DNA of 64,000 nucleotides, from contig CAYUSW010000065.1 of the NCBI GenBank assembly GCA_964447445.1, forward strand, positions 1,106-65,105. The letters run 5' to 3'. The notes under the pieces were generated by a model. The model was not told where the DNA came from. It saw only the letters and a program-made list of their open reading frames with translations, and did not search any database. This document shows, in pieces, positions 18,059 to 62,094 of the stretch (within the stretch, counting starts at the first letter, position 1; every line of letters begins with the position of its first letter). The stretch comes from an uncultured Thermotogae bacterium. GTDB taxonomy: Bacteria; Bipolaricaulota; Bipolaricaulia; UBA7950; UBA9294. Made by a program: the position numbers and the translations under genes.

Positions 18059-18673
18059 GTGGAACAGCGCTCCAATCCGGCGGAACCCCTGAGCCTGGAG
18101 TCCCTGGGCGCCCGCGCGAGAGGCTGCACTCAGTGCGCTTTGTCGGCCGCCCGCACGAAGGTCGTGTTCGGCGAGGGCCCGGCGCAGACGCGCCTCATGA
18201 TGGTCGGCGAGGGACCCGGGGAGGTCGAGGACACGACCGGACGGCCCTTCGTCGGGCCGGCTGGCCAGAAGCTCGACGAAGTGATGGCGTCCGTCGGGAT
18301 TCGCCGCGAAGACTCGTACATCACCAACATCGTGAAGTGCCGCCCTCCCGGGAATCGCGTCCCGGCCCGGGGCGAGATGGAGGCGTGTTTCCCCTACCTT
18401 GAGGCGCAGATCGCTCTCATCCAGCCCTCGCTTATCGTCACGCTGGGGAACACGCCGACTCAGTGGTTCTTGCCAGATACTCCCGGAATCACCCAATCGC
18501 ATGGGACGTTCTTCGCGTGGCGGGGCGGGATTGCGCTCTTCCCGATGTTCCATCCGAGCTACCTTCTCCGGTACCCGTCGAAGGAGAAGGGAGGCCCGAA
18601 GTACCTTGCCTGGCTTGACATCCAGAAGGTCAGGGCATGGCTTGACGAACATGGCGCCGGCGGGAGCTCGTAA
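18059..18673 (+). CDS. uracil-DNA glycosylase, family 4
   Basis: CTQCALSAARTKVVFGEGP...MMVGEGPG and the HPSYLLR motif are typical of family-4 (thermostable type) UDG. Confidence 0.85.
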   Translation: MEQRSNPAEPLSLESLGARARGCTQCALSAARTKVVFGEGPAQTRLMMVGEGPGEVEDTTGRPFVGPAGQKLDEVMASVGIRREDSYITNIVKCRPPGNRVPARGEMEACFPYLEAQIALIQPSLIVTLGNTPTQWFLPDTPGITQSHGTFFAWRGGIALFPMFHPSYLLRYPSKEKGGPKYLAWLDIQKVRAWLDEHGAGGSS

Positions 18674-56183: not shown

Positions 56184-57032
56184 ATGCCGGAGCTGCCCGA
56201 GGTTGAGGTGATGAGAGAGGTCCTTGAGTCGCGTGTCGTCGGGAAGACCATTCGGGTCGCGAGAGCCTGCAGGCCTGCGATCCTGAAGACCGTCGAGCCG
56301 GGGCTCGAGGCTTTGACCGGGGAGTCCTTCCGACAGGTAACTCGACGCGGGAAGCACCTCATCCTCGCATGTCGAGACGAGCTGTGGCTTGTCGTTCACC
56401 TGATGGTTGCCGGTCGGCTCGTGCTCACGCAGAGCGCGAGCCGGGTGACGAAGGCGACGGGCTTCGTCGTCTCGTTCGTCGATGGCGAGGACCTGAGACT
56501 GGTTGAGAACGGCACGGCGAAGATGGCCAAGGTGCACGTGGTGCGGGATCCGGAGAGCGTGGAATGGGTAGCGCGAAGCGGCGAGGAGCCCCTCGGCTCA
56601 GGCTTCTCGCTTGCTCGTCTGTCGCAGCTGCTCGAGGGAGAGCGCAGGCAACTGAAAAAGCTCATCACGGATCAGGCGTTGATCGCGGGGATTGGGACGG
56701 CGTACGCGGACGAGATTCTGTTCGCCGCCCGAGTGTCGCCGATTCGCTACGCGAACACGCTGGAGGCCGGCGAGATCGAACGACTGCATGCGGCGATCCG
56801 GTGCGTGCTGTCGGCTGCGGTCGAGCGCATACGGCAGGAATCTGCCGGCGCGCTGGTGGGAGAGCGTCGGGGTGTGGGCATGGCTGTGTACAAGCGGTCG
56901 GGCGAGCCGTGCGTCGCGTGCGGAAAGCCGGTCGCCGAGATTCGCTTCGCGGAGACCCGGACGTACTACTGCCCGGAGTGCCAATCCAAGGGCCAGACGA
57001 TCGCCGATCGCCGCGCCTGGCTGCGGCGGTAG
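56184..57032 (+). CDS. mutM: formamidopyrimidine-DNA glycosylase (Fpg/Nei family)
   Basis: MPELPEVE N-terminal catalytic Pro, H2TH region and C-terminal zinc finger (CxxC...CPECQ). Confidence 0.85.
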   Translation: MPELPEVEVMREVLESRVVGKTIRVARACRPAILKTVEPGLEALTGESFRQVTRRGKHLILACRDELWLVVHLMVAGRLVLTQSASRVTKATGFVVSFVDGEDLRLVENGTAKMAKVHVVRDPESVEWVARSGEEPLGSGFSLARLSQLLEGERRQLKKLITDQALIAGIGTAYADEILFAARVSPIRYANTLEAGEIERLHAAIRCVLSAAVERIRQESAGALVGERRGVGMAVYKRSGEPCVACGKPVAEIRFAETRTYYCPECQSKGQTIADRRAWLRR

Positions 57033-58081: not shown

Positions 58082-59163
58082 AGAGCGGTCTCCCCTTCGT
58101 AGCGGAACCAGATGGCGCAAGCTCCCTCGGCTCCGACCATACACGGTCCTACGGGAGACAAGGGCGTGCATCGGGTTCCGAAGAGCGGGCAGTCGTTGGG
58201 GGCGGTGCGTGCCGTCAGGACCTCTGCGCAGCGGCAGCCCGTATCGTCGTGGCGGGCCGGCATGTCGCCCACCGAGAACCGAGCCCGGGCGTCGACCGCC
58301 TCGAACGACGGACGGAGGCGATAGCCCGACTCGGGCAGGACGCCCATTCCGCGCCAGGCCGCGGCAGTAGGCTCGAAGACCTCATCGAGCAGCTGCAAAG
58401 CCGCCGGATTGCCCTCGTTACGCACAGCGCGCGGATAGCCGTTCTCGACCGCGGCGTGACCGTCATGAATCTGCCGCAGGAGAAGCGCAATGGCGTAGAG
58501 GATGTCCAACGGCTCAAACCCGCCGATCACCACGGGGATGTGGCGCTCCGCAAGCCAAGGCTCGTAGGCGTGAGACCCGATGATGGTCGAGACATGGCCC
58601 GGGGCGAGGAACCCAGCGATGTCGGTGTCCGGAAGGTCGAGAAGTGCTGCCATCGCGGGAGGGATCCGTTTGTGCGCCACGAGGAGCGACAGGTTGGGGG
58701 GAAGTTGCTCGAAGACTAGAGCGGCCGTCATCGGTGCCGTGGTCTCGAATCCGACGGCGAAGAACACGACCTCGCGCGACGTGGTCCGCGCGATGCGTAC
58801 GGCTTCGTCGGCCGAGAGAACGGTCCGGACATCACAGCCGACGGCGCGGGCGGTATCGAGGGAACGGCCGAAGCCCGGCACGCGAAGCATGTCGCCGAAC
58901 GAGCAGATGATGGCCCCGAGCTCGCCCATGCGAATGGCCGTCTCGATGTCGGCGGCCGGAGTCACGCAGACGGGGCACCCCGGACCTTCCAGAACTCGTA
59001 CGGTCTCCGGCAAGAACCGCCGCAGGCCGTGGCGGGTGATGGCGATCTCGTGTGTTCCGCAGACATGGACCAGTTTGACGGGCCTGCGAGGCGCGAGGAG
59101 ACGGATCGCGTCGCTGAGCCGATGGGCGCGGAGGGGATCCGAGAAGTGGAACGGATGGCTCAT
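58078..59163 (-). CDS. hypD: hydrogenase maturation protein HypD
   Basis: CGTHE, GPGCPVC and the C-terminal CxxC...C..C Fe-S motifs. Confidence 0.88.
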   Translation of the reverse strand: MSHPFHFSDPLRAHRLSDAIRLLAPRRPVKLVHVCGTHEIAITRHGLRRFLPETVRVLEGPGCPVCVTPAADIETAIRMGELGAIICSFGDMLRVPGFGRSLDTARAVGCDVRTVLSADEAVRIARTTSREVVFFAVGFETTAPMTAALVFEQLPPNLSLLVAHKRIPPAMAALLDLPDTDIAGFLAPGHVSTIIGSHAYEPWLAERHIPVVIGGFEPLDILYAIALLLRQIHDGHAAVENGYPRAVRNEGNPAALQLLDEVFEPTAAAWRGMGVLPESGYRLRPSFEAVDARARFSVGDMPARHDDTGCRCAEVLTARTAPNDCPLFGTRCTPLSPVGPCMVGAEGACAIWFRYEGETAL

Positions 59164-59402
59164 GGATCGCCGGAGGCGGGAGTGACAGAGGACGCTAGTT
59201 CATCGAACAAGCGCAGAGTCGCTTGACCATCCGCGGCGGACATACGCTGGATGGCGAAGCCCGCGTGGACCAGAACATAGTCGCCGGGACGCACGAGTTC
59301 GGACAGCGTTTCGAGGCGGACTGTCGCGCCGACTCCGCCGTAGTCGACCTCGGCCGTCTGGCCGGAAACCGAAAGCACGAGCGCCGGAGCGGCTAGGCAC
59401 AT
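59160..59402 (-). CDS. hypC: hydrogenase maturation protein HypC/HupF
   Basis: MCLAAP N-terminus (Cys2) and OB-fold. 80 aa. Confidence 0.82.
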   Translation of the reverse strand: MCLAAPALVLSVSGQTAEVDYGGVGATVRLETLSELVRPGDYVLVHAGFAIQRMSAADGQATLRLFDELASSVTPASGDP

Positions 59403-59502
59403 GTGGGATCACCAGGTGAGATTATAGCGCGGGGTGACCACTCGCTGGCAACGGCAGCCCGCGATAGACTGCGACGAAGCCGACGGGAAGTGAGGAGGTG
59501 GC

Positions 59503-59847
59503 TTGATGGCCGATCGTCTCTATGAGCGAATCTACGATGTGGTGCGCCACGTTCCGAGAGGGAGAGTGGCTACGTACGGAGCCATTGCGCGGGCGGTGGG
59601 GATGCCGCGGGGTGCGCGTCAAGTAGGCTACGCGATGGCGGCGCTGGGTCGCGGGCAGCCGAGGCCTGACGTTCCGTGGCATCGCATTGTCAATGCGAAG
59701 GGCGAGTCAAGCATCGGAGACGAACAGATCGAGCGACTGCGCGCTGAGGGGGTCTCGTTCGGGCCGGACGGACGCATCGACCTCCGAGTCCACGCCTGGG
59801 ATGAAGTCGCCGGCGAAGGATTCGAACAGGAAGGGCTGTTCGGGTGA
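59503..59847 (+). CDS. alkyltransferase-like protein (ATL; MGMT DNA-binding domain with PWHRIV in place of the PCHRV active site)
   Basis: MGMT helix-turn-helix/Arg-finger region (YGAIARAVGMPRGARQVG) is present. The active-site Cys is replaced by Trp (PWHRIVNAKGE), the hallmark of non-catalytic ATL proteins. Confidence 0.75.
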   Translation: MMADRLYERIYDVVRHVPRGRVATYGAIARAVGMPRGARQVGYAMAALGRGQPRPDVPWHRIVNAKGESSIGDEQIERLRAEGVSFGPDGRIDLRVHAWDEVAGEGFEQEGLFG

Positions 59848-59884
59848 CGCCATTCCGTCCGAGCTTCGTACTGCAGTGAGTCGC

Positions 59885-61075
59885 ATGTCGCGGCCGCGAG
59901 TCATCGCCGATCTGCACCTCCATTCTCGCTTCAGTCGTGCCACGAGCCCGCGCATGGATCTCGGGGGACTCGCGCGCGGGGCTCGGCAGAAAGGAGTGCA
60001 TCTCCTGGGAACAGGCGATGCGACGCACCCGGAATGGCTCGCCTGCATCCGCCGCCAGCTCAAGCCAACGGGCGACGGGGTGTACGAGTGCGGCGGAGTG
60101 CACTCCCTCGTCACTGGCGAGGTGTCGTCTTCGTGGCAAGCTGAGGGGAAAGGCCGGCGCGTCCACCTGCTTCTCCTGCTGCCATCGATCGCGGCGGCGC
60201 ACCGGGCATCGAGATGCCTGAGTCGGATGGGAGCGGTCCAGTCGGAGGGTCGCCCCGCGCTTCGCGCGGCGGCCGTGGATGTGGTCGATGCCGTCTGGGC
60301 GGCGGCGCCCGGAGCCGTGGTCATCCCTGCGCACGTCTGGACTCCGTGGTACTCCGTCTTCGGAGCGCGTTCAGGGTTTGACTCCCTCGACGCGTGCTTC
60401 GGTCCGTACGCCGACCGCATCCGAGCCATTGAGACCGGGCTGTCGAGCGACCCTTCCATGTGCCGCCGTGTCTCTATGTTGGACAGGCTGACCCTTGTGT
60501 CCTTCTCCGACGCGCATTCCCCGGACCGACTAGGACGCGAAGCGACGATCCTCGCTCTGGAGGAGATCTCGTTTCCGGCTGTTGCGTCGGCGCTGACAGG
60601 TTCCGGCGGCTGCGCGGGAACGATCGAGCTCTTTCCCCAGGAGGGGAAGTACTACCAAGATGGACACCGCGCCTGTGGGATATCGGTCACGCCGGGAGAG
60701 GCGCGCCGGCTGCGAGGCCGCTGCCCCGCATGCGGGCGAGCTCTCACACCGGGGGTCCTTCACCGGGTCGAGGAGCTTGCGGATCGCGCTCTGTCGCGCT
60801 ACGTGCCGCCGCACGACCACGTGATTCCGCTCGACGAGATCGTCGGCCACCTCCTCCGTCGTGGGCCGCGGACCCAGACCGTGGCGGCCGCGGTGGAGGA
60901 GCTCGTGAGGCGCTACGGGTCGCAACTCGCGGTTCTGGTCGAACGTCCGGTCGAGGACCTGCGGGATGCCAACCCGCTTGGGCTCGCGGATGCGATAGCG
61001 GCAGTTCGGGCGGGCCACGTGACCGTGACGGCGGGATACGACGGGGTGTACGGCACGGCGCAACCTAACGTCTAG
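59885..61075 (+). CDS. PHP-domain nuclease, endonuclease Q (EndoQ)-like
   Basis: N-terminal PHP motif VIADLHLHSRFSRATSP...GTGDATHPEW and later His/Asp clusters (PAHVWTPW, FSDAHSP). Internal zinc-finger candidate CGISV...GRCPACGR. The start is ATG 59885 or GTG 59877. Confidence 0.55.
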   Translation: MSRPRVIADLHLHSRFSRATSPRMDLGGLARGARQKGVHLLGTGDATHPEWLACIRRQLKPTGDGVYECGGVHSLVTGEVSSSWQAEGKGRRVHLLLLLPSIAAAHRASRCLSRMGAVQSEGRPALRAAAVDVVDAVWAAAPGAVVIPAHVWTPWYSVFGARSGFDSLDACFGPYADRIRAIETGLSSDPSMCRRVSMLDRLTLVSFSDAHSPDRLGREATILALEEISFPAVASALTGSGGCAGTIELFPQEGKYYQDGHRACGISVTPGEARRLRGRCPACGRALTPGVLHRVEELADRALSRYVPPHDHVIPLDEIVGHLLRRGPRTQTVAAAVEELVRRYGSQLAVLVERPVEDLRDANPLGLADAIAAVRAGHVTVTAGYDGVYGTAQPNV

Positions 61076-62094
61076 AGGCGCCGGCGCGAGAAGAAGGCGT
61101 CGACACGTTGCTGCAAGCGCTCTTTCCGATCATCGGGCAAGAAGGCTGCCTGGACGCTGTTCGTCACGAGAGACTGGATCGACTCACGCCCGAACTTGAA
61201 CGCCTTCGCGATCGCGGTGAACTCATGAGAGAGGTCGACCTGGGACATGAGCCGATTGTCGGTGCTGATCGTCACAGGGATGCCGAGGTCGATGTAGCGC
61301 GCAAGCGGGCTATCAGCGTACGACGTCATGAACCCCGAGATCTGAAGGTTGCTTGTGGGGCACATCTCCAAGGGGATCCCAAGCTCTGCGACGCGGCTCT
61401 CCGTCTTGGGAGCCTGGAACAGGTAGACGCCGTGGCCGATGCGCTCCGCTCCGAGGTCGACCGCCTCCTTGATCTGCTCGGGGCAGCACCCCTCGCCGGC
61501 GTGGATGGTGACGTGGAGTCCGGCATCGTGGGCGAACTCGACTGCCTTGCGGTGTTTGAGCGGCGGGAACGAGCGCTCTGGCCCGGCGAGGTCGATGCCG
61601 ACGACGCCGCTGCGGCGGAACTGCGCGGCGAGCTGGACGGTCTCAATCGAGTGTTCGGTCGACTCCTGCTTCAGGGCGGTGAGGATGAGGCCGGACTCCA
61701 CTCCGAGCTCCTGCTCAGCGCGACTCATGCCCGCGAGCACCGAGGTGACGACGTCGCGGGGCTTGAGCTCGAGGCGCGTGTGGAGGAGGGGCGCGAAGCG
61801 GATCTCGATGTAGATCACGTTCTCGGCCGCGGCGTCAACACAGAGCTCGTAGGCGGCGCGCTCGAGTGCGGCCTGAGTCTGCAAGAGCGGGACCGTGAAG
61901 TCGAAGGCGGCGAGGTAGACGTCGAGCGGCCGCTTGCCCTTCGGGATGATGGCGGCACGCAGGTCGTCGGTCTGGGGAAGGCCCGCCTCCGGCCGCACGT
62001 CTCGTGCGAGCTCCTCGACAGTGTTCCAACGCAGGGAGCCGTCGAGGTGCACGTGAAGCTCGACCTTCGGCATCCGTCGAATCCATTCCGCCAT
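61072..62094 (-). CDS. add: adenosine deaminase
   Basis: PKVELHVHLDGS, HAGE and TDNRLMS motifs. Start ATG 62094; the track's 118-aa N-terminal extension is low-complexity and unsupported. Confidence 0.85.
   Translation of the reverse strand: MAEWIRRMPKVELHVHLDGSLRWNTVEELARDVRPEAGLPQTDDLRAAIIPKGKRPLDVYLAAFDFTVPLLQTQAALERAAYELCVDAAAENVIYIEIRFAPLLHTRLELKPRDVVTSVLAGMSRAEQELGVESGLILTALKQESTEHSIETVQLAAQFRRSGVVGIDLAGPERSFPPLKHRKAVEFAHDAGLHVTIHAGEGCCPEQIKEAVDLGAERIGHGVYLFQAPKTESRVAELGIPLEMCPTSNLQISGFMTSYADSPLARYIDLGIPVTISTDNRLMSQVDLSHEFTAIAKAFKFGRESIQSLVTNSVQAAFLPDDRKERLQQRVDAFFSRRRL

Follow-up and report, generated by a model that had tools for sequence, protein, structure and literature searches.

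A co-oriented alkyltransferase-like and endonuclease Q gene pair in a Candidatus Bipolaricaulota subclade: two repair genes that are probably neighbours by descent

Here we describe two adjacent DNA repair genes in a 64,000-nt stretch of DNA (contig CAYUSW010000065.1 of assembly GCA_964447445.1, positions 1,106 to 65,105 of the forward strand; hereafter the window, with position 1 as its first letter). The first gene encodes an alkyltransferase-like (ATL) protein and the second a PHP nuclease of the endonuclease Q (EndoQ) family. Both are read from the plus strand and lie exactly 37 nt apart. A terminator scan of positions 59100-61400 found no terminator-like hairpin in this spacer, and the sole terminator-like site in the scanned interval falls within the EndoQ gene, at a frequency that chance would give. 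On the 5' side the pair is flanked by hypC-hypD-hypE on the minus strand, and on the 3' side by a convergent adenosine deaminase gene; fpg is found 2.5 kb upstream of the ATL gene. An earlier note on this sequence had correctly given the co-orientation, the 37-nt gap and the presence of fpg, and had gone on to propose that the two genes form a dedicated module in which a lesion sensor is coupled to an incision enzyme.

The open reading frame (ORF) of the first gene ends with TGA (59845-59847). Its best start is ATG 59506 rather than TTG 59503, where the earlier note had begun it, because the ATG is preceded by a GGAGG sequence and because the orthologues, which are 112-116 aa long, all begin at the equivalent Met (MVDSLYERIY...). 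Relatives have a purine-rich block at the position equivalent to that of the GGAGG. PF01035 covers residues 7-83 of the product (E 2.4e-20; score 72.6 bits, cut-off 27), and the protein has the stand-alone MGMT C-terminal fold of ~110 aa, lacking AGT's N-terminal domain. Among solved structures it is best matched by the two ATLs, Schizosaccharomyces pombe Atl1 (3gva, E 3e-18) and that of Vibrio, vpAtl (2kif, E 2e-16); chains of true AGT/Ogt reach only ~1e-4. The Trp of the VPWHRIV motif (W58) aligns with W56 of Atl1 and with the acceptor Cys of Mycobacterium tuberculosis Ogt, and the Tyr and Arg-finger motifs of the helix-turn-helix align with TYG and ARQVG of Atl1. Furthermore, Y24 (of TYG), the Arg finger R38 (of GARQVG), W58, H59 and R60 are invariant in eight aligned ATL orthologues, and PWHR[VI] was present in 74 of the 80 loci collected with an ATL alignment (see below), the other six being regular-expression misses on longer ORFs. 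By its sequence, gene 1 is an ATL protein in which the Cys of PCHRV is replaced with Trp (PWHRIV), as the earlier note had recognised. That note had also allowed for the return of a Cys on accurate resequencing; we considered a sequencing error at the Trp codon and rejected it because the Trp is conserved in the orthologues.

The ATLs of Bipolaricaulota bear an acidic C-terminal tail with a conserved (G/T/M)LF(G/S/D) terminus, which in the window reads ...GFEQEGLFG (59800-59847) and whose QEGLF resembles the QxxLF beta-clamp-binding peptide. This acidic ...GLFG tail is kept whether EndoQ adjoins or not, and it is missing in two relatives (loci L093 and L103).

From what is known of the family, the protein would bind O6-alkylguanine via its helix-turn-helix and the Arg38 finger and flip the base into its pocket, where Trp58 would stand in for the acceptor Cys, so that no alkyl transfer would take place. 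The distorted complex would then be presented to nucleotide-excision repair (NER; UvrA/UvrC), as it is by known ATLs. That the family interacts with UvrA and UvrC is established (summarised in PMC10779285).

The second gene runs from ATG 59885 to TAG 61073-61075. Residues 8-391 of its product align with residues 5-379 of the Pyrococcus enzyme PfuEndoQ (5zb8; E 6.7e-55), in an alignment limited to the crystallised part of PfuEndoQ, residues 1-400, and the three domains (PHP, Zn-binding and C-terminal helical) align full-length with characterised EndoQ. TIGR00375 is aligned over 2-373 of its 374 positions (E 6.6e-57). The score of 193.6 bits lies below the 326.6-bit cut-off of that model, so that the protein is filed under the wider EndoQ family, in its bacterial branch, and not under that equivalog. 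Our local copy of Pfam gave no match for the protein, and searches of NCBIfam and of the sequences in the PDB settled its identity. Its homologues carry PF27218 (MJ0043_C) and the NCBI name 'endonuclease Q family protein', and at E <= 1e-10 the family comprises 7,993 protein clusters. The nearest named homologues are listed as 'endonuclease Q family protein [Candidatus Bipolaricaulota]', which identifies the lineage of the window.

The roles of the individual PfuEndoQ residues used here are taken from the structure paper (PMC5961232). The metal ligands H8, H10, E76, H84, H139, D193 and H195 of PfuEndoQ correspond to H11, H13, E79, H94, H150, D209 and H211 of the window protein; among 37 EndoQ homologues, E79, H94, H150, D209 and H211 are invariant and H11 and H13 nearly so. 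The wedge residue Trp144 corresponds to W155. The pocket residues H139, T142, E167, G169, L170 and D193 correspond to H150, T153, E183, G185, L186 and D209, which make up the same small pocket as the one with which PfuEndoQ reads deaminated bases, and L168 and N191, which contribute to that pocket through their main chains only, correspond to T184 and F207. All four positions of the structural Zn site hold Zn-competent residues. The site, which the earlier note had described as a CxxC/CPxC zinc finger, is in fact HxxC...CPxC (H261, C264, C280 and C283), where PfuEndoQ has four Cys; the first ligand is His in 64 and Cys in 15 of 80 diverse EndoQ homologues. EndoQ, with its thousands of clusters, is widespread in bacteria, and its structural Zn site there is usually His-Cys3. 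On sequence grounds gene 2 is an EndoQ-family PHP nuclease, which bears out the earlier assignment. The conserved residues suggest that the enzyme would nick DNA on the 5' side of uracil, hypoxanthine, xanthine or abasic sites, using a two-Zn PHP site, the Trp155 wedge and a small rigid pocket.

Public calls of the same or closely related EndoQ genes (P0001 and P0007) are 373 aa long, 23 residues fewer than the window protein; P0001 is 99% identical to the latter and covers 94% of it. The difference would fit a start at Met24 (MDLGG...), by which the DLHLHS metal-ligand motif would be lost, and looks like the result of a mis-called start.

To place the pair in context, we turn to its relatives. 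An ATL gene lies upstream of EndoQ in every close relative (55-71% identity to the window EndoQ). These relatives share a block of more than 13 kb made up of hydantoinase, fpg, hypEDC (minus strand), ATL, in most a PKD-domain gene, EndoQ, adenosine deaminase (minus strand), Na/Pi transporter, metallophosphatases and POR. Because the whole block is conserved, the conservation of the ATL-EndoQ pair is no more specific than that of its unrelated neighbours. Other Bipolaricaulota carry EndoQ in other surroundings, and there no ATL was detected, by gene calls in sp. J31 (L092) and in L094, and by an ATL scan in L002 and L003. The linkage is confined to one subclade of Candidatus Bipolaricaulota.

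The optional PKD-domain gene encodes ~210 aa and stands between ATL and EndoQ in seven of the relatives (type A in Table 1); it is absent from the window. In the five such loci with gene calls, the middle gene overlaps its neighbours by 1-4 nt, start to stop, at one or both junctions. The encoded protein combines a PKD domain with an N-terminal signal peptide that ends in a lipobox (LAGC, LFGC or LGGC), which predicts an exported lipoprotein, one for which a role on DNA is not plausible. A ...RARFYDADG... segment is conserved in the C-terminal half of this lipoprotein. In L093 the trio is intact although other genes, among them dinB, have been inserted on both sides, and this suggests that the trio behaves as one transcription unit of mixed function. 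Downstream of EndoQ in L093, 1.4 kb away, are the gene for the Y-family polymerase (IMS/DinB) and a DUF72 gene.

When the clade loci were mapped by tblastn, four architectures were seen to share the slot between the ATL gene and the deaminase gene: ATL-PKD-EndoQ, ATL-EndoQ (as in the window), ATL-PKD without EndoQ, and ATL only. Of the genes in this slot, ATL alone is constant. The loss of its companions is best judged from the loci collected with an ATL alignment, a set that is not biased towards EndoQ. There, EndoQ is kept at the slot in three of the 13 informative clade loci and has been lost, with ATL intact, from the other 10. The four slot states are interleaved on a rough neighbour-joining tree of ATL and deaminase, implying that each accessory gene has been lost several times independently. 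Two cases show such losses directly. The type B locus L099 and the type A locus L098 are 92-94% identical in DNA, and L099 differs by a clean deletion of ~605 nt that covers the lipoprotein gene. L095 and L096, type C loci with ATLs 81-83% identical to that of the window, keep a degenerate relic of the 5' end of EndoQ immediately after the PKD stop codon. The sequence of the relic is TGATGCGCG...CTTCGCTCTCGCTTCAG; it can be aligned with the part of EndoQ that encodes ...DLHLHSRFS, and it establishes that EndoQ was deleted there and was not absent from the start. In addition, no alignment is obtained among the spacers of the four type B loci, as separate deletions would lead one to expect. Thus, ATL-PKD-EndoQ is the ancestral array of the subclade, and the window, where ATL directly adjoins EndoQ, shows a derived state that arose by deletion of the lipoprotein gene.

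L081 and L084, which come from the same assembly (GCA_040961015.1), are diverged but syntenic versions of the locus on different contigs, L081 without the lipoprotein gene and L084 with it; this assembly seems to hold two related populations.

Table 1. Positions of the genes and sequence elements discussed in the text, and loci assigned to each arrangement of the slot. Plain numbers are window positions; positions in related or distant loci follow the locus label.
Feature	Position or loci	Strand	Remarks
fpg	56184-57032		
Conserved GA(T/G)TATA(G/C)CG element	59421-59426	-	minus strand reads TATAAT or TATACT; 19-24 nt upstream of hypC start codon
-10-like hexamer TAGACT, candidate promoter of the ATL(-EndoQ) transcript	59465-59470	+	35 nt 5' of ATL start; proposed from conservation
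Shine-Dalgarno GGAGG	59494-59498	+	7 nt before ATG 59506; read from the sequence
ATL protein, 113 aa	59506-59847	+	matches PF01035, Atl1 (3gva) and vpAtl (2kif)
ATL-EndoQ spacer, 37 nt	59848-59884	+	no terminator-like hairpin; scar where relatives hold the ~630-nt PKD-domain lipoprotein gene
EndoQ homologue, 396 aa	59885-61075	+	matches PfuEndoQ (5zb8) and TIGR00375
Adenosine deaminase gene	61072-62094	-	convergent with EndoQ
Family-4 UDG-like ORF	~18090-18660	+	GEGPG...HPSYLLR
Type A, ATL-PKD-EndoQ	L084, L085, L086, L090, L093, L098, L103 (7 loci)		tblastn map
Type B, ATL-EndoQ	window, L081, L088, L099		tblastn map
Type C, ATL-PKD without EndoQ	L095, L096, L100, L101, L105, L106		tblastn map
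Type D, ATL only	L097, L102, L108, L110		tblastn map
PKD lipoprotein gene	L084:5312-5941, L085:5354-6001, L086:5342-6001		relatives
PKD lipoprotein gene	L090:5396-6004, L093:4793-5443, L095:6339-6989		relatives
EndoQ 5' relic	L095:6985-7035, L096:3960-4010		includes ATG overlapping the lipoprotein stop codon
Y-family polymerase (IMS/DinB) and DUF72 genes	L093:8035-10207		
ogt near EndoQ in Clostridia	L035:9419-10000, L047:5059-5613, L075:9411-9899	-	PCHRV

Outside the subclade, two surveys were used to look for the pair. A scan seeded with EndoQ and restricted to one genome per species yielded 80 loci from many phyla, with EndoQ proteins 40-49% identical to that of the window, and 66 of these loci have at least 1 kb of upstream sequence. 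A metagenome scan with the ATL alignment yielded 16 loci of the clade (63-83% identity) and 64 distant ATL loci (45-58%), 47 of the latter with at least 1.3 kb on one side. ATL was found near EndoQ in none of the 80 diverse EndoQ loci, and EndoQ near ATL in none of the 64 distant ATL loci. The recurrence that the earlier note had asked about therefore holds within the one Bipolaricaulota subclade and fails elsewhere. A true MGMT with PCHRV is present in four of the 80 EndoQ loci (L035, L047, L075 and L064). In the first three, all from Clostridia, ogt divergently adjoins EndoQ at a distance of ~100 nt; in L064 the MGMT gene is 6.7 kb away. L035, L047 and L075 are mutually closest relatives (73-78% identity) with full synteny of their flanks, so that we rejected them as multiple independent instances of support and count them as a single event.

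These surveys bear on the proposal that ATL bound at O6-alkylguanine recruits EndoQ, which would then nick 5' of the ATL-marked lesion. If this were true, such a hand-off would constitute a new branch of alkylation repair and would widen the substrate reach of EndoQ. It can draw on the co-orientation of the genes across a 37-nt spacer without a terminator, on a linkage that is ancestral in the subclade and a trio that survived rearrangement in L093, on the fusions of AGT or ATL with endonuclease V (EndoV) as a precedent (PMC10779285), and on the ogt-EndoQ neighbourhood of the one Clostridia lineage. We nevertheless regard it as very unlikely. With the local EndoQ gone from 10 of the 13 ATL-seeded clade loci, deleted as the relic proves, and ATL intact in each, the hand-off would have to be dispensable in most relatives; the ancestral array placed the gene for an exported lipoprotein between the two partners; and the pairing is met in none of the 80 and 64 loci beyond the clade. 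At the level of the proteins, the ATL tail is retained irrespective of EndoQ, the EndoQ pocket is unchanged from one for deaminated bases, and, as we see it, both proteins would need the same nucleotide flipped into their own pockets in turn. The stronger version, in which the hand-off provides an excision route that bypasses UvrABC and corresponds, in the form of an operon, to the archaeal ATL-EndoV fusions, is likewise highly improbable. Recurrence in independent lineages together with retention within a lineage, by which a functional module would be recognised, was not found. The dedicated sensor/incision module of the earlier note is thus not supported, given an adjacency that occurs in one subclade only, with a PKD gene mostly in between and EndoQ repeatedly deleted.

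Upstream of ATL, a GTAGACT heptamer is invariant across eight aligned orthologous hypC-ATL intergenic regions, where the mean column identity is 67%. A scan for the sigma-70 consensus over 59100-61400 found no promoter, so that conservation is the basis on which a promoter is proposed here; it is plausible that the TAGACT hexamer serves as a -10 element. In the spacers of the four ATL-EndoQ loci there is no recognisable promoter and nothing conserved in the manner of the upstream TAGACT. ATL and EndoQ are therefore likely, judging from these signals, to be co-transcribed from a promoter upstream of ATL.

Co-transcription could in principle be adaptive without any contact between the proteins, since nitrosative or alkylating stress yields both O6-alkylguanine and deaminated bases, and a single operon for the two lesions would then pay. 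The single conserved promoter-like element upstream of ATL, with nothing comparable in the spacer, fits this idea, as do the few-nucleotide gene overlaps of the trio form, the precedent of AGTendoV, for which both activities are reported (PMC10779285), and the vicinity of other repair genes, namely fpg 2.5 kb upstream and dinB next to the trio in L093. It sits poorly with the presence of an unrelated lipoprotein gene in the same operon and with the repeated, independent losses of the EndoQ and lipoprotein genes, which indicate that selection for co-expression is weak at best. On balance, we think such adaptive co-regulation unlikely.

The account that we favour, and that is probably correct, is that ATL and EndoQ are two independent repair genes which are neighbours by descent and probably transcribed together. 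They would act in parallel on different lesions, neither needing the other, and they would have come to adjoin in the window once a lipoprotein gene, which in the ancestor of the subclade had stood between them, was deleted. Four observations weigh against it. ATL and EndoQ, alone or together with the lipoprotein gene, share one orientation and are closely packed, with nothing terminator-like separating them; the trio of L093 has stayed intact despite insertions on both sides, which suggests one transcription unit; the reported AGT-EndoV and ATL-EndoV fusions (PMC10779285) link the MGMT fold to lesion-specific endonucleases; and in one Clostridia lineage ogt, a second MGMT-fold gene, divergently adjoins EndoQ. 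If neighbours by descent is nonetheless the right description, the locus clearly exemplifies how two genes with the same theme can be packed tightly in one orientation without depending on each other functionally. Also, an exported lipoprotein in the same operon and the independent losses of the accessory genes counsel caution in applying guilt-by-association to compact genomes.

Some features of the surroundings deserve mention in their own right. The stop codons of EndoQ and of the adenosine deaminase gene overlap in the palindrome CTAG (61072-61075), so that no terminator could fit between these convergent genes. The conserved GA(T/G)TATA(G/C)CG element ahead of hypC may be the promoter of hypCDE, in which case the transcript would have a very short leader. 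Additionally, the earlier note had listed a family-4 UDG in the window; an ORF that answers to this description by its motifs alone lies near 18.2 kb, ~41 kb from the pair.

Both genes are ordinary members of known families. Like S. pombe Atl1 (3gva), vpAtl of Vibrio parahaemolyticus (2kif) and E. coli eAtl/YbaZ, the window ATL is an MGMT C-terminal fold of ~110 aa with PWHR, and it has retained both the Tyr and the helix-turn-helix Arg finger; its clade-specific, acidic C-terminal tail, which ends in GLFG, sets it apart from the known ATLs. The EndoQ has the same three-domain architecture as PfuEndoQ (5zb8, 7k30-7k33) and Bacillus pumilus EndoQ, and it conserves all six Zn ligands of PfuEndoQ as well as H195, the wedge Trp144 and the pocket residues that act through side chains; it departs from PfuEndoQ in having His, the majority state of bacterial homologues, as the first structural Zn ligand instead of Cys.

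No paper in the library that was searched names both 'alkyltransferase-like' and 'endonuclease Q'. The earlier note had held that a direct coupling of an ATL to an endonuclease was undescribed, a claim that cannot stand, since the review PMC10779285 already records AGT-EndoV in Ferroplasma and ATL-EndoV in archaea. The same review reports that the bifunctional AGTendoV of Ferroplasma acidarmanus carries both activities; for the archaeal fusion of ATL with EndoV it speculates that the nuclease domain acts like an endonuclease of NER. As in AGTendoV and ATL-EndoV, as that review summarises them, an MGMT-fold binder of alkyl lesions is here genetically coupled to an endonuclease for deaminated bases. 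The window differs from these proteins in three ways: it has two ORFs with a 37-nt spacer rather than a single polypeptide that includes EndoV, its nuclease is EndoQ, of the PHP fold and nicking 5' of the lesion, and not EndoV, and its coupling is facultative and confined to one subclade. The pairing of ATL with EndoQ is accordingly an undescribed one, and stands as a looser, lineage-restricted echo of a known theme.

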